64,000 nucleotides of DNA, from NCBI GenBank assembly GCA_963748215.1, contig CAVVHS010000006.1, positions 544,001 through 608,000 of the forward strand, read 5' to 3'. Below are positions 23,101 to 59,384 of this stretch, piece after piece. The DNA is from an uncultured Gammaproteobacteria bacterium (GTDB lineage: Bacteria > Pseudomonadota > Gammaproteobacteria > UBA9214). The notes under the pieces were generated by a model that was not told the origin of the DNA, made no database searches, and saw only the letters and a list, made by a program, of their open reading frames with translations. Both the position numbers and the translations under genes were made by a program. The stretch's first letter is position 1, and each line of letters begins with the position of its first letter.

Positions 23101-23631
23101 GGCTTCTCGCTGTACATGGACCTGCTGGAACGTGCCGTCAAGGCGCTCCGGGAAGGACGCACGCCGGCGCTGGACCAGCCCCTGCACCAGGGCCCGGAAA
23201 TCGACCTGCAGGTGCCCGCGCTGATCCCGGACGATTACCTGCCCGATGTGCACACCCGGCTGATGCTGTACAAGCGCATCGCCAGTGCCCAGGGTCAGCA
23301 GGAGCTGGACGATCTGCAGGTCGAGATGATCGACCGCTTCGGGCTGCTGCCCGAGGCGGCGAAGAACCTGTTCCGGATCGGCGCCCTGAAGTTGCAGGCC
23401 GCTCCGATGGGTATACGCAAGATCGAGCTCGGCAGCCAGGAAGGCCGTATCCTGTTCAGCGCCACCCCCGATATCGATACGGCAAAACTGATCGAACTCA
23501 TCCAGACCCAGGCGCAACACTACCGCTTCGACGGCGTCAACAAGCTGCGCCTGTTCGGTGATTTCGCGACGCCGGCCGCGCGTTTTGCTAAAGTGCAGCA
23601 GGTGCTGGACCTGCTCGCCGTGCGGGGCTGA
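20132..23631 (+). CDS. mfd: Transcription-repair coupling factor Mfd; about 8 apparent +1 frameshifts in 21750-22850, likely sequence errors
   Basis: [53 protein letters not shown] motifs spread across frames. Confidence 0.92.
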
Positions 23632-35936: not shown

Positions 35937-36584
35937 ATGCCCCCGCGTATGGTGTTGCTGCTGGTCGGGCTCGCACTGCTGACCGTGCTGATCCAGATCA
36001 ACCTGCTGGCGATCGCCTTCGACAAGCTGGGGCTGTCGCCGCACGCCGCCATGACCCTGGTGCTGTTTGCGCTGTTCGGCAGCGCCATCAACCTGCCGCT
36101 GGCGCGGATCACGGCCGAGGCGCCGGCGGAACCCCCGCCGCCCCTGCCCGCCTGGCTGCAACCGCTGCAGATTCCGTTCGAGGGCACGACCCTGATCGCG
36201 GTCAACCTCGGCGGCTGCATCATCCCGGTGGCTTTCTCGGCCTACCTGATGGCGCACAATCCGCTGCCATTCATCGAGGTACTGTCGGCCATCGCCATTG
36301 TCAGCCTCGTCAGCAACCGGCTCAGCCGCCCCATACCGCGACTGGGTATCGCCATGCCGGTACTGGTCGCGCCGTTCACCGCCGCCCTCACCGCCCTGCT
36401 GATCAATGCCGAACACGCCGCCCCGCTGGCCTACATCAGCGGCACCCTCGGCGTGCTGATCGGTGCCGACCTCCTGCGTCTCGGCGATATACGCAAAATG
36501 GGTACACCCCTCGCATCCATCGGCGGCGCCGGCACCTTCGACGGCATTTTCATTACGGGGATCGTGGCGGCGCTGCTGGCCTGA
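35937..36584 (+). CDS. DUF1614 membrane protein
   Basis: GSAINLP, AVNLGGCIIP, SIGGAGTFDGIF motifs. Confidence 0.85.
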   Translation: MPPRMVLLLVGLALLTVLIQINLLAIAFDKLGLSPHAAMTLVLFALFGSAINLPLARITAEAPAEPPPPLPAWLQPLQIPFEGTTLIAVNLGGCIIPVAFSAYLMAHNPLPFIEVLSAIAIVSLVSNRLSRPIPRLGIAMPVLVAPFTAALTALLINAEHAAPLAYISGTLGVLIGADLLRLGDIRKMGTPLASIGGAGTFDGIFITGIVAALLA

Positions 36585-36658
36585 TCATCTATTGAAAGAT
36601 CCGGATGCATGCCGCGTAAAACGCGTAAACTGTATCCGGCCCCTCTCTGGGGGAAATC

Positions 36659-36710
36659 GGGGTCAGAGCACAATATTCGCTAATATTAGGAACAATTGTG
36701 ATCTGACCCC
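36659..36710. repeat. 52-bp palindromic site, subfamily A (A1)
   Basis: ggggtcagagcacaat...attgtgatctgacccc. Confidence 0.85.
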
Positions 36711-36823
36711 AGTTGCTCCAGTTGCCATGCCGTTCTAGATTCTTGCAGGAATGACCACTTTGGGTCGCCTTCCGGCTACAAGACAATTCTTTTAGAGAGC
36801 AGTCTACGGATGTGTTCCTGTTG

Positions 36824-37360
36824 CTAGTCCAGTGACAGCGCAGCTATTTTCTGCAATCCCTGGCGGATGTTGTCTTGTGCGGCTCCCTCAACTGCAAGTC
36901 GGATTCGCGTTACGGCAGCGAATGCTTCGCCAGCGGTTGCTGTATGAGAAGACTTTACAGATTCTCTCATGACGGCATTGCCAGTTCTCGTATTCACCAG
37001 TGACCATGCCATTTCCATATCGATCGTGAAAGAAAATCCGAACATGGGTTTTGACATGCTGATCAGTGACACGCTCAGCATGTAATCCGCACCATCGCCC
37101 TTGATCACGCTGGAAAACAGACCGGACGTCTTAATGGATTCCTCGATAGCGGCGGCCAGATCCTCGTTGGATATGTTTGTATAGTCCATGGCGCCGGTTT
37201 CGCCACCACCACTTGTTCTGATGCTGACTGAATACGGATGCCTGGCACCGAACGACGTGTCATCGACCACGAGTGCTTGCTTGCTTGCCGGCGATGCGCA
37301 GCCGGAGAGCCACACAACGATGGAGCATGCCAGTACCTGACGGATAAGATTAATTGGCAT
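36824..37360 (-). CDS. Hypothetical lipoprotein
   Basis: LSGC lipobox; AGGAG RBS; lower GC. Confidence 0.75.
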   Translation of the reverse strand: MPINLIRQVLACSIVVWLSGCASPASKQALVVDDTSFGARHPYSVSIRTSGGGETGAMDYTNISNEDLAAAIEESIKTSGLFSSVIKGDGADYMLSVSLISMSKPMFGFSFTIDMEMAWSLVNTRTGNAVMRESVKSSHTATAGEAFAAVTRIRLAVEGAAQDNIRQGLQKIAALSLD

Positions 37361-37805
37361 TGTCGGCTCCTTGCTTCTGCTTACTGAAGAAGATGTTGGT
37401 GAGTACCTCGTCCACCATTCCCTCCTGCGATTTTCTTGTCATGGATGTATGAAATGAGTTCCCGGTAGCAAGCGGGAAATCTGTTTTTGGCTCTCTCAGA
37501 GTTACGGTCAGTTCGAGCATGTACATCGTGATATCCCAGAACCATTTATCTACGTAGGTGACGATTGCATCGACATCGGCTTCGGTCTCTGACACCTGAA
37601 AGCCCATTTCCAAAAGTTTTCTCTTTATCACGAGATTGGTATCCCTCGTGTCATCGCTGTATTTTTTCACATAGAATAGCTTGAGACTGGACAGGTCTGT
37701 CGTCTGGTCAACGGTTGCCGTCGCCCGGTTTATAGCGCAGCCATGCAGTAAGGCAAGCACCATCAGCAACACAACGATAAATTCCGTTTTTTCCTTTTGT
37801 AGCAT
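37350..37805 (-). CDS. Hypothetical lipoprotein
   Basis: LHGC lipobox; DKWFWDITMYM motif; AGGAG RBS. Confidence 0.75.
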   Translation of the reverse strand: MLQKEKTEFIVVLLMVLALLHGCAINRATATVDQTTDLSSLKLFYVKKYSDDTRDTNLVIKRKLLEMGFQVSETEADVDAIVTYVDKWFWDITMYMLELTVTLREPKTDFPLATGNSFHTSMTRKSQEGMVDEVLTNIFFSKQKQGADNAN

Positions 37806-37851
37806 GGCTTGCTCCTTGTTTTATGTCTTTACCCGGTTGTGCAGCAATATG

Positions 37852-38373
37852 TTACTCAAACGCGTCGTCACTTCCAGAAAATGTTTTATCCTGTCCGGCA
37901 GATACCGATTCCTGTATGTACGCGCGCTTTTCTTCTTCCCATTGTATTTTCGAATTTTCGTCGAGCCAAACTTCAGGTTCCATCCAGATTACTACCTTGT
38001 CCGGGTAGCGCTGGGCAGCTCCGGACGATGCGTCGAATAGAATCCCTATTCCACCACCGAGGATTACATTACCCATGGTTGCGCCGGCAATCGCCTCATC
38101 GAGCTTCAGGGTGGCAGGCTTGTAGCCGGGCTTTGTGCAAGTAACTATTAGCGGGGCATTCCCCCTGGTCATATAAGTCGTTCCGGGTGTGCGGGGTATG
38201 AATGACCGGTTGCCCTTGCTGTCAACCAAAGTACAGCTTGCGCCGGTTACATTCTTTTCAGTAACGACCCGGATGCCCTGGTCCGTACCAGAAGTGATAG
38301 TGGCGCAACTTGATATTGCACAGCCAGCGAATGCCGCGATGCAAATGCATTTTAATTTCCACAAAACTTCCAT
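37852..38373 (-). CDS. Hypothetical lipoprotein
   Basis: ISSCATI lipobox; GNVILGGGIG..D..SGA glycine-rich motif. Confidence 0.7.
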   Translation of the reverse strand: MEVLWKLKCICIAAFAGCAISSCATITSGTDQGIRVVTEKNVTGASCTLVDSKGNRSFIPRTPGTTYMTRGNAPLIVTCTKPGYKPATLKLDEAIAGATMGNVILGGGIGILFDASSGAAQRYPDKVVIWMEPEVWLDENSKIQWEEEKRAYIQESVSAGQDKTFSGSDDAFE

Positions 38374-38532
38374 GTTGCTCTGCCGTCGCAAGTTATATCC
38401 CGTCCAATCGCTAATACATGAAACCGGTAATAAACAAGCGCTCCGGGTACTGATCCTTGTCAGTTTGGGTGGTAATAATATGCAATACAGGGGACAGCGC
38501 CTACCTCTGGAGTGGAATGACGAGGGTAAATC

Positions 38533-38584
38533 GGGCTCAGAGCACAATATTCGCCAATATCAGGAACAATTGTGCTCTGAGCCC
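38533..38584. repeat. 52-bp palindromic site A2
   Basis: gggctcagagcacaat...attgtgctctgagccc; compensatory change relative to A1. Confidence 0.85.
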
Positions 38585-38597
38585 AGTTGTTTTCGCT

Positions 38598-38679
38598 ACC
38601 GGCTAAGCCGCCCCATACCGCGACTGGGTATCGCCATGCCGGTACTGGTCGCGCCGTTCACCGCCGCCATCACCGCCCT
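38598..38679 (+). repeat. Direct copy of DUF1614 internal segment 36316-36397
   Basis: 80/82 identical by manual alignment. Confidence 0.9.
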
Positions 38680-39269
38680 TTGAATACTGCCTTGAGTATG
38701 AAATGGGTCGGCATGAATATGAGTAAGGGGTACGCACACATCAGCAACGCCAGATACAGAGGACCGGAGACCCATGTCTGGGGCGGGTTGCCGATACCAA
38801 AGACCCAGTTGAGGTTTCTTTCCGGATCGGTGGCCAGGTAACAGACCGGAAGCAGAACCCAGATCAACACTGTCTGCGCATAAACGGCACGCCTGTCGTA
38901 GCCCAGACGATGGATCATCCAGAGCAGTAGCACGGGCAGGACGACATGGAACAGGGAAAAGAACCTGAACAATAGCGTGTGACGGGATTCAAACATGTAC
39001 CCGGTCGCGTTGAGGCCGATCACATCGAAACCTGCAATCAGGCGCAGAAAATAATCCAGGTTCCAGGCCAGCTCCGGCAGCAGCACGCCAACCGCCATCA
39101 TACTGGTGAGAAACCGGTTCTCCATCCAGAGCGCCGGCACAACAGACAGCAGCGCGATATCCGATAACCAGAGAAAATTCGCCGGCCCCCGCTCCATCCA
39201 GTAAACAGGCACAAGGATACAGACAAAGAGCGTACAGGCTATCTTCAGCCACAGGGAAAGCATCATCAC
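38670..39269 (-). CDS. Conserved hypothetical membrane protein
   Basis: NFLWLSDIA, YMF, SLFH, NLNWVFG motifs; several TM helices. Confidence 0.8.
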   Translation of the reverse strand: MMMLSLWLKIACTLFVCILVPVYWMERGPANFLWLSDIALLSVVPALWMENRFLTSMMAVGVLLPELAWNLDYFLRLIAGFDVIGLNATGYMFESRHTLLFRFFSLFHVVLPVLLLWMIHRLGYDRRAVYAQTVLIWVLLPVCYLATDPERNLNWVFGIGNPPQTWVSGPLYLALLMCAYPLLIFMPTHFILKAVFKGR

Positions 39270-39383
39270 GACAGGTATCCAGTGTCTATGCGGGCCTGTT
39301 TATCATTTGTCAAACGACAAACCGTTCGCGTTTTATATCATTGAAATGCCGGCTTGCCAGCAGATCAATCGAGTCTGACACAC

Positions 39384-39703
39384 TACTGTCCCTCATAACC
39401 GTCATTCCCGCGAAGGCGGGAATCCAGGAATTTTTGTGCCCCTGCTAATCAGTGACTGGCTGGATACCCGCCTTCGCGGGTATGACATCATTGTTGTTCT
39501 GGAACTTCATGTCCAGGTACAGCCCAACACAATCCAAGGAACCTCTGATTAATTCACTCACCGTCATCCCGGCGCATGCCGGGATCCAGTGTTATTAATG
39601 GCCTGGATGCCGGCTATCGCCGGCATGACGAATCAATCGGAGATTCCCTTATCACTGGATCAGCCACATTCAATAAATTTCCAAATGATTATGAGGGACA
39701 GCA
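39384..39703. mobile_element. Composite MITE containing REP-like dyads and an inner TIR element
   Basis: TIR tactgtccctcataa / ttatgagggacagca (14/15); dyad 39401-39486; inner element 39536-39650 with dyad 39563-39629. Confidence 0.7.
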
Positions 39704-39728
39704 GGGAATCTGATCCCCATTGATCCTG

Positions 39729-41267
39729 CTATTGCTCTACCCCCGCAAACGCGATCCCGCTCAACTGCGCCAGTTCCGGCTTGCAGGTCGCAAGATCGTC
39801 CCGGCTGAACGCGTTCAGGTGCGCATGGCCGCAGGCCCTGGCCATCACCTGCATCAGCTCGACGGAGGCGCCGAGAAATCTCGCCAGCTTCAGCGCGGAC
39901 GCGTCGACGTCCAGGCGCCGGCGCAGTTCGGGTTGCTGGGTGGCGATACCGGAGGGGCAGTTGTTGGTGTTACAGATGCGTGCCGCGATACAGCCGATGG
40001 CCTGGATGGCACTGTTTGCAATGGCGATGCCGTCCGCGCCGAGCGCCAGCGCCTTGATGAAATCCGCCGGCACCCGCAGGCCGCCGGTAATGATCAGCGT
40101 GACCCGCCCGCTGGCGCCTGCCTGGTCGAGGCAGCGCCGGGCGCGCGCCAGTGCCGGGATAGTGGGTACGCTGATGTGATCGCGGAACAGCAGCGGGGCC
40201 GCGCCGGTGCCGCCACCGCGCCCGTCCAGGATGATGTAATCCGCGCCGGCCTGCAGGGCGAACTCGATGTCGCGTTCGATGTGGTTCGCGCTCAGCTTGA
40301 AGCCGACCGGGATGCCGCCGCTCACTTCGCGCACCCGGTCGGCGAAACGCCTGAAGTCCGCCGGGTTCTCCAGGTCGGCGAAGCGCGGCGGTGAGACCGC
40401 CGCCTGTCCCGCCGGGATGCCGCGCACCTCGGCGATCCTGTCCGAGACCTTCGCCGCGGGCAGGTGTCCGCCGGTGCCCGTCTTGGCGGCCTGGCCGCCC
40501 TTGAAGTGGAACGCCTGCACCTGCCGCAGCAGTTCCTCGCGATAACCGAACTTCGCACTCGCCAGCTCGTAGAAGTAACGGCTGTTGGCCGCCTGCTCCT
40601 CCGGCAGCATGCCGCCCTCCCCCGAGCAGATACCGGTACCCGCCAGTTCGGCGCCCTGCGCCAGCGCGACCTTCGCCTCCTGCGACAGCGAGCCGAAGCT
40701 CATGTCCGAGACGAACAGCGGCATCTCCAGGCGCAGCGGCCGGCGCGCTTCCGGGCCGATGACGAGGTCCGTTCCCACTGCCGCGTCCTCCGCGAGTGGC
40801 CTGTGGGCGAGCTGCGCGACCATTAGCTGGATGTCGTCCCAGTGTGGCAGGCGGTCGCGCGGCACCCCCATCGCCGCCATCGGCCCGTGATGCCCGAACA
40901 CCGCCAGGCCGTCGCCGGCCAGCGCATGGATGAACTCCACCGTCGGCTCCTCGGCCGTGGGGTGTACCGGCGGTACGGGGCCCTCATCGCCCGCGACCCC
41001 CGGTCCCTCCTTGCCCACCTGCTCCGCCGTGAACTGCTTGTGGCTACCGTCGCAGTACGGCGCGTTGCGGGTGTGCTTGCAGGCGCACAGATAGGCCTCG
41101 CTGTCCTCGTCGGCGACGATGACCTTCGGCGCAAACGGGGTGTTGACGTGCGAACCGTCGCAAAACGGCTGGCTGCGCGAGCGGCCGCAGGTGCAGAAAT
41201 GGTATTCGTGCCCCTTTTTCAGGTTGACCCTGACGGGCTTGTTGTCGGCGACAATCGGGTGCTTCAT
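39729..41267 (-). CDS. FMN-binding glutamate-synthase-family protein with two N-terminal CDGSH Fe-S domains
   Basis: Two CxC..S/T..PF/YCDGSH motifs; MSFGSLS, GGHLP, DGRGGGTGAAP, C-x5-C-x4-C. Confidence 0.88.
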   Translation of the reverse strand: MKHPIVADNKPVRVNLKKGHEYHFCTCGRSRSQPFCDGSHVNTPFAPKVIVADEDSEAYLCACKHTRNAPYCDGSHKQFTAEQVGKEGPGVAGDEGPVPPVHPTAEEPTVEFIHALAGDGLAVFGHHGPMAAMGVPRDRLPHWDDIQLMVAQLAHRPLAEDAAVGTDLVIGPEARRPLRLEMPLFVSDMSFGSLSQEAKVALAQGAELAGTGICSGEGGMLPEEQAANSRYFYELASAKFGYREELLRQVQAFHFKGGQAAKTGTGGHLPAAKVSDRIAEVRGIPAGQAAVSPPRFADLENPADFRRFADRVREVSGGIPVGFKLSANHIERDIEFALQAGADYIILDGRGGGTGAAPLLFRDHISVPTIPALARARRCLDQAGASGRVTLIITGGLRVPADFIKALALGADGIAIANSAIQAIGCIAARICNTNNCPSGIATQQPELRRRLDVDASALKLARFLGASVELMQVMARACGHAHLNAFSRDDLATCKPELAQLSGIAFAGVEQ

Positions 41268-41392
41268 GGTGGCTCCTGTGCATGCGCAAAGGTTATCCGG
41301 AACCTGCACAGGGTACCGGCCGACACCGCTCATGAAAAGCCGGCAGCCGCAGGGGGCTTCAGTGTCACCCGGCAGGAACCGATGTAATCTTC

Positions 41393-41446
41393 AGGGTCAG
41401 ACGCCAATAATTGCCGGACACCCGAAGATCGATGGCCTCTGACCCC
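41393..41446. repeat. Divergent palindromic site (54 bp)
   Basis: agggtcaga...tctgacccc. Confidence 0.6.
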
Positions 41447-41492
41447 GTGTAGCGTTTGCTATACTTGTTTTCAGTTGCTGACATAGGAGGGT

Positions 41493-41810
41493 GTGGCAGT
41501 GATGGAAGATTCAGGCAAGCCCCGCGAGGTGCTGTCAATCACCGAAAGTGCCGGCGATGTACCGGACTGGATCATGTCGCTCGCCCCGGTCGGGGTGGCA
41601 TTCGTCTGTTACGTCAGCATCATCCTGGCCGCGGGCATTGATCCGAAAGAGAAAATCATCGCCTACGGCGCGGCGGCAGCTTTCATCGGCCTGGAATGCT
41701 ACTGGATACTCCGCGGCCTGCAAAACAATCATTTCGGCACGATGGTGACGGGGTTCCTCGGCGCGGCAATGGCAGTACTCGTCCTCGACCTGTACCTGTC
41801 ACTGCTATGA
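41493..41810 (+). CDS. Small hypothetical membrane protein
   Basis: AGGAGG RBS; three hydrophobic helices. Confidence 0.65.
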   Translation: MAVMEDSGKPREVLSITESAGDVPDWIMSLAPVGVAFVCYVSIILAAGIDPKEKIIAYGAAAAFIGLECYWILRGLQNNHFGTMVTGFLGAAMAVLVLDLYLSLL

Positions 41811-41846
41811 TGGCCGTGAAGCCGGGGGCGCTGCAAATGCAGCAAA

Positions 41847-41898
41847 GGTACCAGAGCGCAATTGCCGCGAATATTCGGGAAACGTGTGCCCTGACACC
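41847..41898. repeat. Degenerate 52-bp site A4
   Basis: ggtaccagagcgcaatt...gtgccctgacacc; same length as A1-A3. Confidence 0.55.
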
Positions 41899-41905
41899 AA
41901 CGGTT

Positions 41906-42400
41906 CTATTGCTTGACCGGTGAGGCGGCGGGTGGCGAATTCGCCTCTTTCGCACCCATGTAGGCAGTCAGTGACTTGAATCCGCCTTTCAGCACGTACA
42001 CATTCTCAAAACCGATATGACGCAGCGCGGTCCCGGCCGCAGCGGCCCGTGTACCGGACGCGCACACGATCACCACGGTCTTGTCTGTCGGTATGCGATC
42101 CAGGCCGGCCTCGGTAAACAACTCGTTAAACGGAATGACCTGTGAATCCGGCAGCGTCATGCTGTAGACAGCGGCCTCGGCGGGTGTCCTGATATCGATC
42201 ACCGCCAGCGGTTCCTTTGACTTCACCTTCTCTACGAACACATCCGGTGGCATCAGGTGCAAGGCCTTGCCGGCATCGGCACCCTGCACTGGCGCGAACA
42301 ACTTCGCATAGCTTTCCGCCAACGCCTTGTCATAGGACCAGGCCGACGTCGCAAAGGTCATGACAACCATCAGCAGAAGCGTTTCAGGCAGGTGTTTCAT
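41906..42400 (-). CDS. Exported rhodanese-domain protein
   Basis: Signal peptide; IDIRTPAE, VCASGTRA, VLKGG motifs. Confidence 0.85.
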   Translation of the reverse strand: MKHLPETLLLMVVMTFATSAWSYDKALAESYAKLFAPVQGADAGKALHLMPPDVFVEKVKSKEPLAVIDIRTPAEAAVYSMTLPDSQVIPFNELFTEAGLDRIPTDKTVVIVCASGTRAAAAGTALRHIGFENVYVLKGGFKSLTAYMGAKEANSPPAASPVKQ

Positions 42401-42431
42401 AACAGCAGTTCTCCATTGATGAATCGAAACC

Positions 42432-42483
42432 GGAGTCAGATACGAGTTTTCGATTATATAAGGGAAAACCGGGATCTGACCCC
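42432..42483. repeat. 52-bp palindromic site, subfamily B (B1)
   Basis: ggagtcagatac...gggatctgacccc, flanked by gaaacc/ggttttc. Confidence 0.85.
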
Positions 42484-42498
42484 GGTTTTCTAATATTG

Positions 42499-42578
42499 AT
42501 TTCGGCACAACGGTGACGGGGTTCCTCGGCGCGGCACTGGCAGTACTTGTCCTCGACAGGTACCTGTCGCTGGCCTGA
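42499..42578 (+). repeat. Copy of the 3' end (41731-41810) of the 41493 gene
   Basis: About 70/80 identical. Confidence 0.85.
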
Positions 42579-42604
42579 AGGCCGATCCGTCAGGCACGGA
42601 AATC

Positions 42605-42656
42605 GGGGTCAGAGCAGAATTGTTTCTGATATTCGCGAATATTGTGCGCTGACCCC
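42605..42656. repeat. 52-bp site A3, opposite orientation to A1
   Basis: ggggtcagagcagaatt...attgtgcgctgacccc. Confidence 0.85.
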
Positions 42657-42685
42657 GATTATTCGATTATTTCTATTTCCGCAGA

Positions 42686-43123
42686 TTACCTGTCGCGTAG
42701 TGCTTTTATGTCGCCAGGTGTAAACGTGGTGTAGGTCCTTGACCATTTGATTTTACCTGTATTGTTCTTCTTTTCTTGTTTGTAGTGATCGCCCTCCTTG
42801 TATATCGGGACGCAATTCTCCTTCGTGTTATTCCAGTTAATGCACAGGCCCTCTTCAGTCGCGCGCCAGACGCCAGTTTTATTGGTCTTGCCCTTAACCG
42901 AATACACTTCCCCATCATCGGCGAAGTAATTAATGAAAGGCTCTGAGTAAAAACTACTCATGCCCTGACTGCGGCCCTCCACGTAATCACCTTCGACAGT
43001 GTTGCCTGAAAACAGGGATCGAATCTCATCCGCGGACAAATTGTCGGATGCAGATGACGGGATTGTTGCAAGCAGAATGATTGCCGAGAAGAAAGCCCTG
43101 ATGAATGCCTGGTGCGTGTACAT
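42686..43123 (-). CDS. Exported hypothetical protein (low GC)
   Basis: Signal peptide; LSADEIRSLFSGNT, GVW..LCI.W motifs (DUF995-like). Confidence 0.65.
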   Translation of the reverse strand: MYTHQAFIRAFFSAIILLATIPSSASDNLSADEIRSLFSGNTVEGDYVEGRSQGMSSFYSEPFINYFADDGEVYSVKGKTNKTGVWRATEEGLCINWNNTKENCVPIYKEGDHYKQEKKNNTGKIKWSRTYTTFTPGDIKALRDR

Positions 43124-43260
43124 ATGCGTGCCTCATTATTTGGACGGTTATTACTGTTAAATTGAAGTGTAGACGACTCAAGCATAAAACCTCAATTGAA
43201 ATCGGGGTCAGAGCACAATTGTTTCTTCTGTGGAAAATGTATCCGGCCACTTTTTCCGGT

Positions 43261-43324
43261 CCGGTCGGGGTGGCATTCGTCTGTTACGTCGGCATCATCC
43301 TGGCTGCCGGCATTGAACCGAAAG
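43261..43324 (+). repeat. Copy of internal segment 41586-41649 of the 41493 gene
   Basis: 60/64 identical; lies between half-site A5 (43198-43225) and B2. Confidence 0.85.
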
Positions 43325-43334
43325 GTGCGAAACC

Positions 43335-43386
43335 GGAGTCAGATACGAGTTTCCGATAATATAAGGGAAAACCGGGATCTGACCCC
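43335..43386. repeat. 52-bp site B2
   Basis: Near-identical to B1. Confidence 0.85.
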
Positions 43387-43392
43387 GGTTTT

Positions 43393-43638
43393 CTATTGTT
43401 GTAAAGCGTAAAGCATCACCGCAACACCCACTGAGGTCAGGATAAGCGAAATGATATTCTTTGTTTTATTTGTTTTGATTGCTGTGTATGCCATACCGAT
43501 ATTCATACTGGATAGCGGACCATGTCGTTCGTTATCTTTTTTGTATGATGCGGGACCAAGCCGAACAAACATGAGGCCGATTCCCGCAACAATCAGAATC
43601 AATCCGTAAAATGCAAAGATCAAACCGTCAGCGCTCAT
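43393..43638 (-). CDS. Small hypothetical membrane protein (low GC)
   Basis: Two TM helices; stop abuts B2; GTTAGGC 16 nt upstream of ATG. Confidence 0.6.
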   Translation of the reverse strand: MSADGLIFAFYGLILIVAGIGLMFVRLGPASYKKDNERHGPLSSMNIGMAYTAIKTNKTKNIISLILTSVGVAVMLYALQQ

Positions 43639-43856
43639 ATATTATCTTCTTGTAGCCTAACTACCATTGGGCCAACCAATGAAAGCATCAAGACGACTGC
43701 TGATTCGCATAACATTTATATTATCTCGATAAGACCTGTCACTTTCCCAGCTTACAGGCATGATATACGGATTGAAACAGACCCGAAAATCGAACCCTGA
43801 ATTCGCTCAACCCGCCCCTCCCGTCTAATACAACACGAAACCGGGGTCACGAAACC

Positions 43857-43908
43857 GGGGTCAGAACCGAGTACCCGATAATATAAGGGGAAGCCGGGAT
43901 CTGACCCC
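43857..43908. repeat. 52-bp site B3 with a 14-bp tandem duplication of its left end
   Basis: cacgaaaccggggt twice at 43834-43861. Confidence 0.85.
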
Positions 43909-43940
43909 GGTTTTCTCATCGGGAACCGGCCCGGGATTTT

Positions 43941-45167
43941 TCAATCAGCGGCCTGCCTGCGGCAGGACACATACCACAGCAGCAGCGCGATCGACAGCAA
44001 CAACGCCTGCCCGATGACGAAATGGTGCCGCTGTGTGTGCAGGGCCGGCACGGCGATGCCGGCAACCGCCGCGTTGATCGCCATCTGGAAGAAACCCTGC
44101 ATCGACGCCGCCGTGCCGCGGTGATGCGGGAAACAGTCGAGGGCGAGAATGGTGATCGCGGGCATGAGCATGGCGGTGCCTACGGCATAGATCACGAGCG
44201 GTCCGATGGTGAACACGACGGTGGCCTCGAACAGCCCCACCTGGACGAGGTTGAGCACGACAGCAAGGACAAGGACACCGAATCCGGTACTGACAATGCG
44301 CAGCGGCGACAGGTATCGCGACAGTCGGCCGGAGGCGAAAGCGCCCAGCATCAGGCCGGCGACCATCGGGATGAACTGGACACCGAAATCATCGGTGCCC
44401 AGGCCGAGGAAGTCGTAGATGACCGTCGGCGCACCGGCGATGTAAAGAAAGAGTCCGCCGAAGCTGAAACCCAGGCTCAGGATCATCAGCGGGAACTGGC
44501 GGTGCTGCAAGGTCCGGGTGTAGACACTTGCCACGACCGAGGGCCGTACCGACTGGCGCTGGGCCTCGGGCAGGGTCTCGCGGATAACCGCCGTCAGACC
44601 GATCAGCAGCGCCCCGAGCAGGCACAGAAACCAGAACACGCTGCGCCAGCCGTAGTGATCATGCAGCCACGCACCCAGTACCGGCGCGATGGCCGGCGCC
44701 AGCGCGAACACCAGCATCACCTGGGACATCGCCCGGTGCGCGCTTGTCGTATCGTGCGCATCGCGGATCATCGCCCGCCCGGCGATCAGGCCGCCGCTGG
44801 CCGCGAAACCCTGCAGCGTGCGCCACACGAGGAAGGCCGTGGCATCAGCGGCCAGCGCGCAGCCTATGGACGCCAGGACATACAGCGACAGGCTGCCCAT
44901 GATCACCCGCCGGCGCCCGAAGCGGTCGGCCAGCGGCCCCCACAGCAGCGTCGAGGCCGCAAAGGCCGCCAGGTACACCGACAGGCTCTGACTCAGCAGC
45001 GCGCGACTGATACCGAACGTCGCCTCGATGTCCGGGAACGATGGCAGGTAGGCATCGATGGAGAACGGCCCCACCATCGACAGCAGCGCGACGATGAAGG
45101 TCAGGCGCGTGTGTACGCCTGGACGGATAACGGCGTTTTCGGAAGGAGGAAATGGTGGCTGGCTCAT
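43941..45167 (-). CDS. Bcr/CflA-family MFS multidrug efflux transporter
   Basis: SIDAYLPSFP, GPLADRFGRR, APAIAPVLG motifs. Confidence 0.9.
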   Translation of the reverse strand: MSQPPFPPSENAVIRPGVHTRLTFIVALLSMVGPFSIDAYLPSFPDIEATFGISRALLSQSLSVYLAAFAASTLLWGPLADRFGRRRVIMGSLSLYVLASIGCALAADATAFLVWRTLQGFAASGGLIAGRAMIRDAHDTTSAHRAMSQVMLVFALAPAIAPVLGAWLHDHYGWRSVFWFLCLLGALLIGLTAVIRETLPEAQRQSVRPSVVASVYTRTLQHRQFPLMILSLGFSFGGLFLYIAGAPTVIYDFLGLGTDDFGVQFIPMVAGLMLGAFASGRLSRYLSPLRIVSTGFGVLVLAVVLNLVQVGLFEATVVFTIGPLVIYAVGTAMLMPAITILALDCFPHHRGTAASMQGFFQMAINAAVAGIAVPALHTQRHHFVIGQALLLSIALLLWYVSCRRQAAD

Positions 45168-45248
45168 AGATCGCAGAGCCTAGCGATTCTTAAGCGCTTT
45201 TTCTACGACAGCTTATCTTGATAGTTAATTGTATTCACCCCTTTATTC

Positions 45249-45947
45249 TCAGGCTGTATTTAGACGTAATTGATCTCTGTCTACTGTTGTGCCTTCGGTA
45301 TCTCCAGCCAGACAGTCGAACAGCTCGGCCCAGGTCTCGCTGTCGCCCCGCACGTCACGGTTGTTCAGCTCGTGGATGCCGAGCCCCTGCTCCACGGCAC
45401 TGACATAATGCAGGGTGTCGCGCAGGCGTGCGGCGACCGGAATGTCGAGCTTGTTGAGAAAGCGTTCCAGCTTGTCGACGGCCCGCGTGCGGATGCGCGT
45501 CCGGTTCGTGACGATAGCAAGGCGCGTGTTGTGCACCCTGGCCTTGCCCACCAGCAACAGGTCCCTGATGAAGTCAGCCGTGGAATGGATATCGATCGAG
45601 GAAGGCAGCACCGGGATGAGAATGATGTCGGCCTCGGCAACCCGGTCTTCGAGATCGATCGCGGCACAACCAGCCGGCGTGTCGGTAATGATATAGCGGG
45701 TATCCTGCGGGACACGCATCTGCCAGGCACGCGTGACGCCCGCCGCCGGCGGTTCGTAGGCGGCCACACAATGAATCGGCGGGCTGCCGGCGGGCCGCGT
45801 CGTTGCCCAGCGGCTGGTGGAAGCCTGGCGGTCATAATCGAACAGCGCGGTTACACAACCGCGAGACGCGCAATAACTGGCCAGATTGGTGGCGATCGTG
45901 GTTTTACCGCAGCCACCCTTGCTGTTCATCACGCTGATCCTGAGCAT
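45249..45947 (-). CDS. ParA-family ATPase (orphan)
   Basis: NSKGGCGKTT, DYDRQ, DTPAG motifs. Confidence 0.85.
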   Translation of the reverse strand: MLRISVMNSKGGCGKTTIATNLASYCASRGCVTALFDYDRQASTSRWATTRPAGSPPIHCVAAYEPPAAGVTRAWQMRVPQDTRYIITDTPAGCAAIDLEDRVAEADIILIPVLPSSIDIHSTADFIRDLLLVGKARVHNTRLAIVTNRTRIRTRAVDKLERFLNKLDIPVAARLRDTLHYVSAVEQGLGIHELNNRDVRGDSETWAELFDCLAGDTEGTTVDRDQLRLNTA

Positions 45948-46230
45948 GTTTGATCCAGCCCCCGTGCTTGAGTACGTAGTTGCAATGCGATCCGTTTATT
46001 TTACCAGCATTGCCAGCTGTATCCAGCGATCAGCCAGAGACTTGATCAAAAGAAAAAATGCGCGTCGTGAACCTGAGCCTTGTTCGCAGCGGCAAGTCTG
46101 CTTTTTCAGGGGGTTCGTCGATAATCCTCTCGCACAACAGGATAAAGATGATGTAATTGTCTGGAAAGTCTACTTCGTTGGTCGGCCACTCGAACATGCG
46201 GTCGAGGAAGATGTAAATGGTGTCAGGACA

Positions 46231-46299
46231 ATCAATAGGGTCAGACACCATTGATTCGTCAAGACATCGTCAGATCAATCGAGTCTGACCCCATTGATT
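46231..46299. repeat. Palindromic site, subfamily C
   Basis: atcaatagggtcagacaccattgat...atcaatcgagtctgaccccattgat. Confidence 0.8.
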
Positions 46300-46538
46300 C
46301 AATTTTCTGTGGGTTTAGAAACGCCCGTGAACTTGAAAATGAGTTTGCTTAGGTACCTTTCAGTCGGACGAAAAACATACGCTGCACCAGCAGGCATTAT
46401 TGTGAAGAAAAACCTCTCTTCATTGTCCTCTGCGGCAAATAGTACCAATACAGCGATAAGGGCAATCGTGATCAGCGCATACATTGCCCAAGCTCTTTTA
46501 AGGTAGGATTGATATTTACCGTTTTGAATGTTTGTCAT
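46299..46538 (-). CDS. Small hypothetical membrane protein (low GC)
   Basis: TM helices; stop abuts site C; GTTAGGC upstream at 46619-46613. Confidence 0.6.
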   Translation of the reverse strand: MTNIQNGKYQSYLKRAWAMYALITIALIAVLVLFAAEDNEERFFFTIMPAGAAYVFRPTERYLSKLIFKFTGVSKPTEN

Positions 46539-47097
46539 AATGTGAAATACATAGTGCCGCTTATCGGTAATTTGTCTGTACAAAATACGATGGCTTTAAT
46601 AACCTTTTAGTTGCCTAACAGTATAATCGAAGTAATCTTTAGTATTACTACTTCTGCGTAACCGTTCTTTTGTGCGAATAAGCGATTCCGCATAGCATCA
46701 ACGGCAATGTAACGCATCAAGGCTTTCATTAAGACGGAAAACGGCCGCAGGATCAATACCCTGTCACTGGATCTACCCACTTCAACCGCGAAACCGCCCT
46801 CCATTAACAAGCGAGAGAGCGCCAGAACGGCCAGGATGACTGGCGTTTTCGCCACCTGTTTCGATGCGTTACGGATTCTGCGTTACGACCGGCTGCAGAC
46901 GCCTGCGGGATGGAAGGTGGATGAGCACTAATCGTAATGGCTCACTGACAACCCGATCAGCCAGTATATATGTACTAATCCAATAATTATATTTCTGCCG
47001 CCAAAATTGACGACCAGGACATTCTGCGCGCCCAGCGTGGCATCGCAATGTGACTATGTAAATTTGGTTTTATTTTTCTCTGCGACCTTTGCGTCTC

Positions 47098-47235
47098 TCG
47101 GCAACTGCTTCCTGCGTTGCCCTCGGTTCTGGTATCCTGCTTCGCCCTACCGAGTCCATCCCTGGACTCGTACCTCCTACATGGCCCAGGCCAGTTTCTC
47201 GACCGCTCTGCGGCCTCACCTTCTCCCTGTAGTCG
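47098..47235. repeat. 48-bp mini-element carrying two nested insertions
   Basis: Aligns to 24829-24876 once 47123-47170 and 47183-47224 are removed. Confidence 0.75.
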
Positions 47236-47254
47236 TGCGCAAGCCAGTTCTTTT

Positions 47255-49598
47255 CTAAACCCGCACCTCAAACCCACTAATCGCAATCTTCAACACCTCG
47301 TCGATCCGCGCCACCGGAATGAAGGTCATCGCCGCCCTCACCTCCTCCGGCAGTTCCTCCAGGTCGGCCTCATTGTCTTTCGGCAGGATCACTCGCTTGA
47401 ACCCGGCACGGTGCGCAGCGAGCATCTTCTCCTTGATGCCGCCGACCGGCAGCACCAGGCCGCTGAGCGTGATCTCGCCGGTCATGGCGATGTCGTCGTG
47501 GATCGAGGCGCCTGTGTAGGCAGAGGCCAGCGCGGTGGCCATGGTCACGCCGGCGGACGGGCCGTCCTTGGGCGTGGCGCCGGCCGGCACGTGGATGTGC
47601 ATGCCGGACTTGCGGATCAGGTCGGGTGCGATACCCAGTTCCTTCGCCTGTGACCAGATATAGCTTTGGGCAGCGCGTGCGGATTCCTGCATCACGCTGC
47701 CGAGCTGGCCGGTCAGGGTGAGGTCCTTGCCTTCCGGCAACATCACAGCCTCGACGTACAGCACCTCGCCGCCGGTCTCGGTCCAGGCCAGGCCGGCCAC
47801 GATGCCCGGGATCAGTTCCGCGCGCTTGCCCTCGCGCGCCATGCGCGGCGGGCCGAGATACTCGGTGATGAGTTCTTCGGTCAGCGTGACCGGCTCGGTG
47901 TGACCCTCGGCGATGCGTGTGGCGACCTTGCGCACGATGCGGCCCAGGGCGCGTTCCAGCGAACGCACGCCGGCCTCACGCGTGTAGTTGCGGATGACGT
48001 AGGCGAGCGAAGTGTCGTCGATGACGAGCTGTTCCTGCTTGACGCCGGCGTTATCCAGGGTACGGCCGAGGATGTAGCGGCGCGCGATCTGCAGCTTTTC
48101 CGCCTCGCTGTAGCCGGACAGGCGCAGCACCTCGATGCGGTCGAGCAGCGGCGCGGGGATGGTGTCGAGCGTGTTGGCGGTCACGACGAAGAACACCCCG
48201 GACAGGTCGAAGGGCTGGTCGAGGTAGTTGTCGCGGAACTCGTTGTTCTGCGCCGGGTCGAGGATCTCCATCAGGGCGGCGGCCGGATCGCCGCGGAAAT
48301 CGCGGCCCAGCTTGTCGATCTCGTCCAGCATCAGCAGCGGGTTGCTGACCCCGGCGCGGCGCACGGCGCGGATGATGCGCCCGGGCATGGCACCGACGTA
48401 GGTGCGGCGGTGGCCGCGCAGTTCCGCCTCGTCGTGCAGGCCGCCCAGGCTCATGCGTTCGAAGGTACGGCCCAGCGCGCGGGCGATGGACTGGCCGAGC
48501 GAGGTCTTGCCGACACCGGGCGGGCCGACGAAGCACAGGATCGGTGCCCGTGCATCGGGATTGAGTTTCATGACCGCCAGGTGCTCGATGATGCGGTCCT
48601 TGACCTCCTTGAGGTCGTAGTGGTCCGTATCCAGCACCTCGCGCGCCTGCACCAGGTCGAGCTTGTCCTCGGTGCGCTTCGTCCACGGCAGGTCCAGCAC
48701 CAGGTCGATGTAGCTGCGCATGGTCTGGTAGTCGGGCGAGTTGGCCGACATGCGTTCCAGCCTCGAGAGCTCCTTGTCGATCTCCTTGCGCACCGCTTCG
48801 GGTAGCTCTGCCGCCTCCAGGCGTTCGCGCAGCCCGGCCACCTCGGCCTGCTCGGGCGAGGATTCCCCGAGCTGCTCCTGGATCTCGCGCAGCTGCTGGC
48901 GCAGCATCATCTCGCGCTGCTCCTTGCTCATTTTCGTCGGTGACCGCGCTGGAGATCTGCTGCTGGATCTCCAGCACCTGGATCTCGTGGTTGAGGTAGT
49001 CGACGATCAGGCGCAGCGCATCGAGCTGGCTGTTGGCGGCCAGCAGCTGGTACTGCTTATCGATACTGATCGAGATCACCGCGGACAGTACGTAGGCCTG
49101 CTCGATCGGCTTGTCCAGGTCGGAGACCAGCTGCTTGAGGTCGATCTGCATCTGCGCGGGCCCGAGTTCCAGCATGCGCGCCGCCTGGTCGAGCATGGTG
49201 CGGTGCAGGGCCTCGAGCTCCGAACCGGTATCCTCCAGTTCGGGCAGATAGGCGGACTGGCATTCGAGGAACGGCGACTCGCTGGTGAGCAGCTCGCGCT
49301 CGATGCGCCGGCCGGCCTGCAGCACCAGGTTGATGGTGCCCTGGGTGCGCTGCATGCGCTTGATCACGCACAGCGTGCCGACCGGGTACAGATCATCCGC
49401 GCCCGGTTCCTCGACGGTGGCGTCGCGCTGCGTGAACACGACGATGCGCTTGTCCTCGGTCGCCAGTGCCGCCTCGACTGCGGCGACCGAACGCGCGCGG
49501 CCGGCGGTCACCGGCATGACCATGTGCGGGAAGATGACGCTGTTCTTGAGCGGGAACACCGGCAGGATCAGGGACGTGGCGTGGGAATCGGTCGTCAT
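47255..49598 (-). CDS. lon: Lon protease (endopeptidase La); one +1 frameshift near 48932
   Basis: LON N-domain [13 protein letters not shown]; [31 protein letters not shown] motifs. Confidence 0.92.
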
Positions 49599-57397: not shown

Positions 57398-58933
57398 TCA
57401 TCGCGGCAGGGCAGCCGGGTGCGCACCGGTAACCTGTAACAGGCCATCGTAATTGCCGTCGCTCGCCAGCCGGTAACCCGTGACGGTATTGCGGGCGGCG
57501 TAGACATGGTCCTCGTACCACAGTGGCACGTACGGGAGCTGTTCCAGCAGGTGCGCCTGCACGGCACAGTAGCCCGTACCCTGCTCTGTCAGCGTGGCGC
57601 CCTGCTCCGCCTGCTCGATGAGCCGGTCTATGGCGGCATCGGCAAAACGCCCGCGATTGGCACCCGCAGGCGGCAGCGAACTGCTGTGAAAGGCATAACG
57701 GAAAATATCCGGCGTCTTGATGCCGACCCACATCAGGCTGTACATCTGGAAATTGCCGGCCTTGATGTCACCGAAAAACGTACCCCAGTCGTAGCTGCTC
57801 AGATGCATGCGGATACCGACCTCGGCCAGCTGTTGCTGAATGATGGTGGCAATGCGCAGGCGCACCGGGTCGGTGGAGGTCTTGTAGTCGAGCACCAGTG
57901 GCCGCTCCCCGGTATAGCCGGCCTGCTGCAACAGGCCGCGTGAGCGCTGCGGATCATATTCCAGCGGCTGCAGCTGCGCGTTGCCGGCCCAGTGCTCCGG
58001 CGGCAGCAGCGCCGCGGCCGGTCGCGCCGCCCCGCCCAGCACGTAGCGGACGATGGCATCGCGATCGATGGCATGGGCAACCGCGCGACGGACCGCCAGT
58101 TCGCCGGTCACCGGTGACGCCAGGTTGAAACCGAGGTAGGCGAAATTGCTGCCCGGACCGCGCACCACATCGATGCCCGGCTGTCGTTCCAGGTAACGCT
58201 GCAGCTCGGCCGGCAGGTCGTTCTGCAGCAGGTCGATCTCGCCACGCAGCAATTTCAGGACGCGCACGGTGGGGTCGCCAATGCGCAGGAACTCGAAACG
58301 CTGGCGATCGGTGCGTCGTTCCAGCTGCAGGCGCCCCGGTTCCGGCCAGCCGGTGAAGCGGAATGGGCCGCTGCCGAGCGGGGCCTTGTGGAACGGGGTG
58401 CCGGCGTCGATTCCGCGCGCCGGCAGGATGCCGATCACCAGGTAGCCCGGAAACAGCGGATCGGCGCGATCCAGCAGGAAATCCAGCGTGTCGTCGTCAA
58501 CCACCCGGATGTCGTCGATCAGCTGCAGCGTGCCGGCATGCGGTGACTCGCTGCCCGGAGCCAGTATCGATCGGTAGGTCGCCGCGACGTCGGTTGCCAG
58601 CAACGGCGTGCCGTCGTGGAAGGCATCGCGCCGGGGATCCAGGTGAAAGCGGTAATGGCGCGGGGTGAGTTGCTCCCAGTGTGCGAGCGCGGCGACCGGA
58701 CGCACCTGGTCATCGAAGTCTACCAGGCGCCGGTACAGCAGACGGTTGATGCGCGCCGAGGTCGCGTCGGTGGCATAGCGCGGGTCCAGGTTGGCCGGGC
58801 TACTGGCCAGGCCGAAGCGGATGATGTCATCCGGTGCCGGTGTGCAGCCCACTATCACCAGCAAAACCACCGACAGCATTGCCGACAGTCGCAGCAGCCG
58901 GAGACCCGCTTTCGCCAGACTAGTGCTGATCAT
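57398..58933 (-). CDS. Peptide ABC transporter substrate-binding lipoprotein (family 5)
   Basis: IVGC lipobox; NLDPR, FHDG, GSGPF, VRRAVAHAIDR motifs. Confidence 0.88.
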   Translation of the reverse strand: MISTSLAKAGLRLLRLSAMLSVVLLVIVGCTPAPDDIIRFGLASSPANLDPRYATDATSARINRLLYRRLVDFDDQVRPVAALAHWEQLTPRHYRFHLDPRRDAFHDGTPLLATDVAATYRSILAPGSESPHAGTLQLIDDIRVVDDDTLDFLLDRADPLFPGYLVIGILPARGIDAGTPFHKAPLGSGPFRFTGWPEPGRLQLERRTDRQRFEFLRIGDPTVRVLKLLRGEIDLLQNDLPAELQRYLERQPGIDVVRGPGSNFAYLGFNLASPVTGELAVRRAVAHAIDRDAIVRYVLGGAARPAAALLPPEHWAGNAQLQPLEYDPQRSRGLLQQAGYTGERPLVLDYKTSTDPVRLRIATIIQQQLAEVGIRMHLSSYDWGTFFGDIKAGNFQMYSLMWVGIKTPDIFRYAFHSSSLPPAGANRGRFADAAIDRLIEQAEQGATLTEQGTGYCAVQAHLLEQLPYVPLWYEDHVYAARNTVTGYRLASDGNYDGLLQVTGAHPAALPR

Positions 58934-59384
58934 CCGTCCGGGCCAGTTCCATGCGCAGGCGCACCCGCAGGCGCCGAAAGGTCACCGGGTCAAGCATGTC
59001 GGGCAGGATCACCAGCTGTCGGCGCAGGCGGCTGCCCGTGCGGAGTTGCAGGATAACCAGCCACGGCTGCACGAAGGCCTGCCGGCACAGGGTCGCGCGG
59101 CTCACCGCACCGTCCTGCAGTTGCAGGTGACAGGTTCCGTCACCGTCCCAGGTCAGGGAGTGAATGCACCGAGGTGCCGCACGGCTGGCCTGACGCGGCC
59201 AGTGCCAGGCGAGGCTGGCCAGGATGCCGGTTGCGATGAGCAGCATGACCGGAATCGGTAACGTGGTAAACGGCAGCTGCAGGGCGGCTACCGCGTGCAC
59301 CAGCAACAGCCAGGCCGCCATGCGGCGTGAAGCCCCCAGCTCAAGACGCAGCGGCGTTGCGTATTTCCCGGACAAGGTTCGCAA
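58920..59384 (-). CDS. YgfX-like inner membrane protein
   Basis: Two TM helices; D..TFRRLRVRL motif; lies after sdhE. Confidence 0.75.
   Translation of the reverse strand: MRTLSGKYATPLRLELGASRRMAAWLLLVHAVAALQLPFTTLPIPVMLLIATGILASLAWHWPRQASRAAPRCIHSLTWDGDGTCHLQLQDGAVSRATLCRQAFVQPWLVILQLRTGSRLRRQLVILPDMLDPVTFRRLRVRLRMELARTDDQH

Follow-up and report, generated by a model that had tools for sequence, protein, structure and literature searches.

RAYT-like genes, relatives of the genes for tyrosine transposases associated with repetitive extragenic palindromes (REPs), have been named TIRtrons or TIRYTs when the repeats at their flanks are long terminal inverted ones (TIRs) and not REPs (Di Nocera, De Gregorio and Rocco 2013, BMC Genomics 14:522; PMC3733652). 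According to the available text of that report, the TIRs of TIRYT genes share the motif GGGGWSAS, some of their families are moderately abundant and arranged in dimers or clusters, and the length of TIRYTs is not that of RAYTs. Here we analyse an array of palindromic sites in a window of 64,000 nucleotides, positions 544001-608000 of contig C6 in the 3.52-Mb, nine-contig assembly of an uncultured gammaproteobacterium. We consider it likely, with a probability of about 0.85, that these palindromes are non-autonomous repeats resembling REPINs (hairpin-forming REP doublets), namely head-to-head dimers of the two TIRs that flank RAYT-like Y1 (HUH) transposase genes of the TIRYT or TIRtron kind. 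On this reading the array is a described kind of repeat piled up in a variable stretch of the chromosome and no new gene-capture system. Throughout, G000 denotes the source genome, G002 and similar labels the other genomes searched, and C1-C9 contigs; the genus set comprises 37 genomes, G000 included, many of which are incomplete metagenome-assembled genomes (MAGs).

As in the TIRtrons portrayed in the available text, the Y1 genes found here encode an HUH motif and a catalytic tyrosine, are longer than RAYTs and have long inverted repeats at their flanks. GGGGWSAS fits GGGGTCAG, found in the cores of repeat types A, B and C, as well as GGGGACAG of type D, with GGGGTCGG of type E being off by one position. 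The repeat families are moderately abundant, form dimers or clusters, and several transposase/TIR pairs coexist in one genome. Differences from TIRtrons, as far as that text of PMC3733652 extends, are the host, a mostly uncultured gammaproteobacterial genus not named there, the exact 52- or 56-bp dimer with a CTAATATTAG centre, and the tight clustering near a transposase gene with build-up in flexible low-GC segments, neither of which is mentioned there.

With REPINs and their RAYTs (Bertels and Rainey 2011, PLoS Genet 7:e1002132; PMC3116915) the sites share the joining of two inverted units into a hairpin-capable doublet. However, classical REPs are self-palindromes of 20-40 nt with a GTAG head, dispersed in hundreds of copies and accompanied by a single-copy RAYT, whereas the repeats described here lack GTAG, number in the tens, lie in local clusters and coexist with several paralogous transposases per genome.

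A clustered array of hairpin-forming palindromes

Between 36.6 and 46.3 kb, the window contains eight full palindromes of the form GGGGTCAGA...TCTGACCCC and three further sites that are half, split or decayed (Table 1), in an interval bounded by a DUF1614 gene (end 36584) and lon (from 47255). Every one of the approximately 11 sites that the initial annotation of this stretch had listed as sharing an inverted 9-bp core is present in the sequence, and its count of seven sites spanning exactly 52 bp from core to core is correct with the decayed copy at 41847 included; two further sites measure 54 and 56 bp. The site borders read AAATC/GATTT, AAACC/GGTTT or TCAAT/ATTGA. The number of GGGGTCAGA matches is unremarkable by itself (21 in the window, on both strands and with at most one mismatch; shuffled sequences average 14.1, and 21 is attained in 3 of 100). 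These matches, 19 of which fall within 36659-46292, pair as inverted repeats, and an inverted-repeat search returned palindromes at 36650-36719, 38533-38584, 41847-41898, 42601-42660, 43852-43913 and 46230-46299, together with the B-type arms at 42464-42490 and 43367-43393.

Under a strict rule (at most one mismatch per core, a spacer of 30-42 and at least 60% self-complementarity), the genome holds 19 sites, eight of them in the window and the rest at C3:100-135 kb (7), C5:132-137 kb (3) and C7:210 kb (1). A neighbour within 5 kb was found for 17 of the 19; when sites were placed at random 2000 times, the mean was 0.9 and the highest value 8. The sites are therefore clustered and not evenly spread, and the palindrome array is real, non-random and far from chance. 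Within the array, the first two A-type sites (36650-36719 and 38524-38589) are 91% identical and the B-type sites B1 and B2 94.6%, both pairs in direct orientation.

For analysis of the hairpin, 43 sites were aligned without gaps. The long, inter-arm hairpin pairs 76.5% of cells, against 68.8% in shuffles, none of 500 of which reached the observed value, and 35-46% when the partner was slid along. In the variable 7-bp stem next to the core, changes occur on both sides in all seven pairs, and in the GGTGTCAGA/TCTGACACC subfamily compensation is seen even within the core. The stem varies through compensatory changes, its length being fixed. Each arm taken as its own REP-like hairpin pairs 60.2% of cells, so the single-arm fold is weaker than the inter-arm one, a further difference from REPINs; it is strong in B-type arms, and the right arm of B1 is a 10-bp stem-loop of its own with a terminator-like score. 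Folded as single-stranded DNA (ssDNA), seven of eight window sites gave z values of -4.4 to -6.5, in line with the earlier description of the sites as hairpin-forming. C-type centres contain two direct CGTC motifs. An imperfect stem, TACGAGT opposite ACCGGGA, is common to three window sites, C5:136798 and a site in G037; the recurrence of this same imperfect stem at different loci and in another species shows that the whole dimer spreads as a unit.

Gene context was assigned by crude ORF (open reading frame) calls. Eleven of the 19 strict sites lie between tandem genes, six between convergent and two between divergent genes, which is the pattern reported for REPs in the available text of PMC3733652. 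At least one gene end adjoins 17 of the 19, and 17 are located between the neighbouring ORFs or overlap no more than the end of one; three fall inside a called ORF, the start of which we take to be over-extended. The minus-strand stop codons that had been noted close to sites were found again at 39729, 41906, 43393, 46299, 42686 and 43941, as was the AT-richness of the cargo, with a GC content of 0.45-0.53 in the bins at 37-38, 43-44 and 46-47 kb and about 0.63 around them.

Such proximity to gene ends would also be expected if the hairpins were host RNA or DNA elements kept for a function, as terminators, stabilisers of mRNA 3' ends or protein-binding sites, with only a historical link to a transposase. 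This reading is compatible with TIR dimers. B-type arms are terminator-like directly past the stop of the 81-aa ORF and account for 4 of the 17 terminator-like matches in the region (shuffle mean 10.0 for the whole region), and G038 has the 41847 site in the corresponding place. By contrast, T tracts are lacking in A- and C-type sites, which fail the terminator scan, the same intergenic regions are free of sites in G002, and two sites lie between divergent starts. Moreover, the decay of the 41847 ortholog in G000 (left core GGTACCAGA) speaks against a strong constraint. Altogether, we regard retention for a host function as very improbable. A search of 30-52 kb against Rfam at permissive thresholds gave one sub-threshold miRNA match on a B site and nothing relevant, and a literature query by the letters of the motif returned only unrelated primer or oligonucleotide matches.

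The sites are widespread in the genus. With a spacer of N34 and at most two mismatches they occur in 29 of the 37 genomes, compared with one match in each of two genomes for the reversed-pattern control; exact cores with a spacer of N30-40 were found in 18 of the 37, with no control match. No exact match was obtained in 12 genomes from other families of the class. Beyond the genus, taking one genome per species, at least 120 stretches have the core at 52-bp spacing, a spacing that was fixed in this wider scan and is thus uninformative on any preference for 52 bp. Among the matches listed, 53 of 85 sites in 80 loci are also palindromic inside, and the CTAATATTAG centre is common to several records from Chromatiales, Thiohalobacter, Thiohalomonadales and Methylococcales.

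Transposase genes and their flanking repeats

The largest cluster of sites, on C3, contains a gene for a 240-aa protein of the Y1_Tnp family (PF01797; E 8.9e-16, 58.6 bits versus a cut-off of 23). It encodes the motifs HVH and YIELNP (Y-x3-NP), and H60, H62, Y120, N124 and P125 are invariant in 13 homologues. Its flanking sequences, ...AATCAATAGGGTCAGACTCGATTGATT... and ...ATCAATCGAGTCTGACCCCATTGATT, correspond to the two halves, left and right, of the 56-bp C type, which is also the type of the site at 46230-46299 in the window. The initial annotation had guessed at an HUH/RAYT-type enzyme and had proposed to look for the sites next to Y1 HUH transposases; both ideas are borne out by this gene, and the first also by homologues in sister species that lie between halves of the 52-bp types. 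The best NCBIfam match of the C3 transposase is REP_Tyr_transpos. In the Protein Data Bank (PDB), a profile of the 13 homologues best matched E. coli TnpA-REP (4ER8; E 2e-4, residues 3-144) and next ISDra2 TnpA, whereas a phmmer search with the single transposase sequence gave no PDB match at E <= 0.01. TnpA-REP (Messing et al. 2012, NAR 40:9964; PMC3479197) and IS200/IS605 TnpA (PDB 2XM3) are thus the best and next-best solved relatives of the profile, with HUH and Y-x3-NP aligned. Differences from TnpA-REP are the remoteness of the similarity, some 100 extra C-terminal residues in the present protein and a substrate and activity that are predicted only.

Five Y1_Tnp genes are present in G000, each with its own flanking inverted repeats (Table 1). 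Across the genus, homologues at E <= 1e-10 were found in 27 of the 37 genomes, G000 included, and 8 of 12 homologous loci inspected have matching repeat halves on both sides. These are of type C in G008, G002 and G000, of type B (GGGGTCAGATCC.GGTTTT) in G044 and G010, of an A/B-like type with the inner edges CTAATAT/ATATTAG in G005, of a GTACTTG type in G017 and of GGGGTCGGA in G018; one of the other four loci has a single half and three have none or another motif. Transposases are 84-90% identical within type C, 78% within the B pair and 64% within the D pair, and about 44-64% in all other comparisons. Transposase clades and repeat types go together across the genus. Since paralogues in sister species are flanked by the 52-bp A/B halves, a 52-bp site corresponds to the left end plus the right end of such an element, with the gene removed. 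The transposase neighbourhood itself is scrambled among G000, G002 and G008.

A separate family of classical REPs (CTGTAGGAGCGGATCCCATCCGCGA...) occurs in tandem or inverted groups at G000:C2:106240-106470 and 111540-112420, where it flanks a shorter RAYT-like gene of its own (C2:111905-112123).

By analogy with E. coli TnpA-REP and IS200/IS605 TnpA, the transposase would recognise the hairpin on ssDNA, cut it and rejoin it. In this way dimers would be copied infrequently and for the most part to nearby extragenic DNA located downstream of genes, and their insertion would be local and strand-specific. The interval from DUF1614 to lon would then be a flexible segment in which dimers have accumulated, their direct repeats and hairpins subsequently promoting deletions, duplications and template switches, which could have left gene fragments in a patchwork and made the interval resemble a cassette array.

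Several observations weigh against the identification of the palindromes as TIR dimers. On REP_Tyr_transpos (NF047646) the C3 transposase scores 69.1 bits, under the curated cut-off of 80. No cognate transposase of A or B type was found in G000, where the genes comprise one of C type, two of D type, one of GGGGTCGGA type and one classical GTAG-REP RAYT; the six A/B sites of the window would thus be orphans, moved in trans or relics. Across genomes, having sites and having a transposase homologue correspond poorly: sites occur in 22 of the 27 genomes with a homologue and also in 7 of the 10 without one, a tally that includes many incomplete MAGs and a query that also catches paralogues with other TIRs. 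The classical REP tag GTAG is absent at the sites, and their low copy number (19 under the strict rule) and clustering are unlike the hundreds of dispersed REPINs of Pseudomonas. The mean local GC content at the sites, 0.55 versus 0.604, is not clearly unusual, as 10.7% of random 3-kb windows are equally low. Finally, no transposition, excision or cleavage was seen in the material at hand, which consists of assembled contigs of four public runs, not reads.

The gene-then-site layout, mostly on one strand, also invites comparison with integrons. Like attC sites in a cluster lacking an integron integrase (CALIN), the palindromes are hairpin-forming, imperfect, placed past ORFs in co-oriented arrays and would be single-stranded substrates, and the genome does encode an integron integrase (C2:97400-98338; TIGR02249, 443.7 bits versus a cut-off of 265) that might serve unusual attC sites in trans. 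However, the site borders have no AAC...GTT boxes (R'' RYYYAAC, R' GTTRRRY), and the stems are near-perfect, without the bulged, spacer-containing architecture and its L boxes. There is no linkage to IntI: none of the GGGGTCAGA palindromes is on the intI contig C2, and the IntI locus has a canonical array of its own, with sites such as GCCTAAC...GTTATGT, GGCTAAC...GTTAGCG and ...GTTAGGC. The same half-sites, furthermore, flank Y1 transposase genes. That the palindromes are attC sites is a reading to which we give next to no credence, in agreement with the initial annotation, which had set them apart from attC. It had also stated that the window holds no integrase or transposase, and a Pfam-type scan of 67 window ORFs (E <= 0.01 for 20 of them, E <= 1e-12 for the other 47) indeed detected no family of either kind; none of the Y1_Tnp and integron-integrase matches of the genome lies on C6, the contig of the window.

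The chromosomal integron on C2 (G000:C2:80001-98338, locus L016) is genuine, with approximately 25 small, co-oriented minus-strand ORFs upstream of intI and canonical attC sites between them. The intI match carries one in-frame TGA. In the window, mfd (20132-23631), lon (47255-49598) and sdhA (60319-62083) are each represented by two overlapping ORFs in different frames, which suggests frameshifts, possibly through indel errors in the assembly; the TGA in intI may be the same kind of error.

Table 1. Sites and genes of the array interval (window coordinates) and Y1_Tnp genes of the source genome (contig coordinates)
Feature	Position	Core (span)	Strand	Remarks	ssDNA fold z
A-type TIR dimer	36650..36719	36659-36710 (52 bp)		66 bp past DUF1614 stop; fold -17.6 kcal/mol	-6.5
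Putative lipoprotein trio, three small ORFs	36824-37360, 37350-37805, 37852-~38375		-	GC ~0.48; no Pfam match	
A-type TIR dimer	38524..38593	38533-38584 (52 bp)		compensating changes in both cores, GGGCTCAGA/TCTGAGCCC	-6.5
Duplicated internal DUF1614 fragment	38595..38679 (G000:C6:582588-582686)		+	copy of 36313-36397, 96.5% identical; follows second A site	
Split C-type arm	39352-39377 + 39690-39724	39361/39709		~330 bp of nested MITE-like (miniature inverted-repeat transposable element) repeats between	
GltS-like/CDGSH gene	39729-41333		-		
54-bp palindrome	41384..41455	41393-41446 (54 bp)		divergent promoter region of GltS-like gene and gene-7; solo, no cargo; weak fold	-2.6
gene-7 (small membrane)	41493-41810		+		
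Decayed A-type dimer	41847..41898	41847-41898 (52 bp)		left core GGTACCAGA; between gene-7 and rhodanese gene	
Rhodanese gene	41906-42400		-		
B-type TIR dimer B1	42423..42498	42432-42483 (52 bp)			-5.0
gene-7 3'-end copy	42499..42584		+	87% identical to 41731-41816; abuts B1	
A-type TIR dimer	42596..42665	42605-42656 (52 bp)		inverted relative to 36659 site	-5.6
ORF145 (145 aa)	42686..43123		-	no Pfam match	
Half site	43198..43226	43204		left half of A-type dimer	
gene-7 middle copy	43261..43324		+	93.8% identical to 41586-41649; abuts B2	
B-type TIR dimer B2	43326..43401	43335-43386 (52 bp)		overlaps stop of 81-aa ORF	-4.4
81-aa ORF	43393..43638		-	no Pfam match; between B2 and B3	
B-type TIR dimer B3	43838..43919	43857-43908 (52 bp)		preceded by 12-nt partial duplicate of own outer stem	-5.6
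MFS (major facilitator superfamily) transporter gene	43941-45167		-		
C-type TIR dimer	46230..46299	46237-46292 (56 bp)		halves of this type flank Y1 transposase gene G000:C3:109399-110121	-5.6
Y1_Tnp gene	C3:109399-110121			flanking repeats of C type	
Y1_Tnp genes, two identical copies	C9			flanking repeats GGGGACAGACCACGTTTT, D type	
Y1_Tnp gene	C9:71.7 kb			flanking repeats GGGGTCGGACC	
Y1_Tnp gene	C2:111.9 kb			flanked by classical GTAGGAGCG REPs	

Cargo genes and alternative arrangements

The genes between the sites were followed into related genomes. In G002, the GltS-like gene, gene-7, the rhodanese gene and the MFS gene are contiguous and free of palindromes in three intergenic regions that bear sites in G000. 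From this contiguity we conclude that the four genes are residents and that G000 gained solo sites at 41393, at 41847 and of type B. The 41393 site has no counterpart in the orthologous intergenic region of G002, and the 41847 site, absent in G002, has an intact orthologous copy beside the rhodanese gene in G038 (L069:2029-2080). The DNA next to DUF1614 and lon differs between G002 and G000. In G008 the interval is rearranged differently, with one C-type site, the ortholog of that at 46230-46299, between a ParA gene and lon. Between conserved genes, solo sites are thus found in some species and missing from others.

Other modules occur elsewhere without sites. ORF145 is found in 5 of the 37 genomes, with homologues of 86% amino acid identity in G038, where it lies between A-type sites by the rhodanese gene, and in G042, where its context is unrelated and has no sites. 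The first gene of the trio, members of which may encode lipoproteins to judge from their N-termini, has matches in 7 of the 37 genomes, G000 included. Close homologues (68-73% amino acid identity) are in G016, G034 and G044, where the other two genes were seen by DNA match and no A sites flank the trio. In the C3 and C5 clusters, sites lie between ordinary genes on both strands (PFK, PPDK, ferritin, MsrA, YaeQ, SelO, sigma factor, AhpC and TfoX). Resident cargo, site-free modules and clusters among ordinary genes do not fit an ORF-plus-site as the unit of mobility.

These comparisons bear directly on the proposal of the initial annotation that the sites serve a trans-acting gene-capture system. 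The contiguity of the four genes without palindromes in G002, the C3 sites between housekeeping-type genes and the AT-rich modules free of sites in G042, G044, G034 and G016 all speak against it. Of the two observations that it had named as grounds for abandoning the idea, cargo that is syntenic in relatives, with breakpoints unrelated to the sites, and sites spread evenly after core genes, both were found in part, the first in G002 and the second in that the sites lie between ordinary genes and yet are clustered.

A narrower form of gene mobility was also considered, in which a Y1 (TIRYT) transposase and its dimers provide a low-fidelity platform for integron-like shuffling: DNA between like-oriented dimers would leave, probably in the form of a single-stranded circle, and enter again at a different dimer, building arrays of foreign, low-GC genes next to the transposase gene, as in G002, and at orphan arrays such as the present one. 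One observation in its favour is the order in the window, B1-[gene-7 3' end, A, ORF145, half A, gene-7 middle]-B2, which is circularly permuted relative to gene-7; the segment 42499-43327 lies exactly between the direct B copies, as expected of a circle integrated at a B site. A circular intermediate would yield this permuted order, and the donor arrangement that it requires was not found. Derivation from a G038-like ancestor by simple insertion, by inversion, or by tandem duplication and deletion was tried, and none of these yields the observed order.

Alternative arrangements are also present in public data, examined as assembled contigs from four public runs, one of them possibly the source sample. 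These contigs support the local arrangement over several sites (for example 36381-38635 and 43057-43388, both in X5, and 41005-42097 in X2) and include joints with other orders at or near sites, which represent alternative arrangements and not intermediates. At the joint 36617->38667, present in one X1 contig, the first two A sites with the trio between them and the DUF1614 fragment are missing; because 24 letters at the joint resemble 36627-36650, its left junction is placed at the edge of the first A site, and its right junction is 74 bp past the second. The joint 42424->43955, at the B1 edge, lacks B1 through B3, whereas 43149->41852 and 41804->38528 match the G038-like order gene-7-A-ORF145-A-rhodanese. 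Since several joints come from contigs that are only 90-95% identical, they may reflect other species such as G038 and not strain variants. The region is prone to rearrangement, with sites at many junctions.

Shuffling would be favoured further by the homology between the ORF145 DNA of G000 and G042, which stops 2-25 bp from the A sites, and by the C-type transposase gene of G002. Within 8 kb downstream of that gene are seven full C-type dimers and one half site; all seven dimers are oriented like the TIRs of the gene itself. The ORFs between them stand singly, and five have a GC content of 0.40-0.42 (genome 0.60). Uniform orientation, however, is also explicable by strand-specific insertion of ssDNA, and the genes of G002 and of the C3 cluster are of mixed orientation relative to the sites. 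The same modules lack flanking sites in G042, G044, G034 and G016, and resident genes have solo sites between them, in two cases in a divergent promoter region. Moved segments carry hitch-hiking gene fragments, and the right junction of the 2-kb indel is well past a site, both of which fit sloppy recombination or template switching better than a precise site-specific exchange. With the doubt over the species behind some joints added, we think shuffling of genes by the transposase unlikely, and retain the reading of the sites as TIR dimers, presumably inserted locally.

In G002, a region of about 5 kb (G002:C5:236800-241850; L063:10796-15851) consists of ORFs with a GC content of 0.40-0.42 in the 0.60 genome, and nearly every intergenic gap in it holds C-type dimers or half sites of E type and GGTGTCAGA type.

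Other repeats accompany the array in G000. The insert in the split C-type arm (39378-39689) consists of two nested MITE-like repeats. The longer, about 155 bp in length and with inverted repeats of GTCATTCCCGCGAAGGCGGGAATCCAG type, is present approximately 8 times in the genome; the shorter, of some 112 bp, has over 40 copies, which are 72-93% identical. The ends of the nested composite, CTGTCCCTCATAA and TTATGAGGGACAG, resemble a degenerate GGGGACAG core, and a similar composite is found at C5:139014-139257. Just upstream of lon, a block of short repeats (47075-47247) has more than 60 partial copies genome-wide; public-run contigs break or vary there, with depth up 3-5 fold and small joints at 47120-47230. 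The gene for a ParA-like ATPase with its upstream sequence (45249-46078) is 94% identical to G008, while identity is 86-87% for lon and the MFS gene on its flanks, which hints at a recent exchange of this segment; the segment ends at the C-type site in both genomes. Elsewhere in the window, Pfam matches to the T_hemolysin family (15890-16597) and to the membrane toxin CptA of a toxin-antitoxin pair (58920-59384, beside the Sdh5/SdhE flavinator) look like ordinary chromosomal genes unrelated to the palindromes.

Significance of the probable TIR dimers

The array adds a clean example to a class that has received little study, the repeat families of RAYT-like transposases with a GGGGWSAS core. 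To what has been described it adds that the 52- and 56-bp palindromes are exactly the left end plus the right end of a transposase element, that repeat type co-diversifies with transposase clade within one genus, and that the core occurs at the same 52-bp spacing in many other lineages. Because arrays of this kind are easily taken for recombination systems that are integron-like or novel, the finding aids annotation. It also points to an unusual population biology of repeats, with low copy number, local clusters and piling up in flexible DNA. If the dimers were the actual breakpoints of gene gain and loss, a Y1 HUH transposase would represent a second, independent route to cassette-like shuffling.

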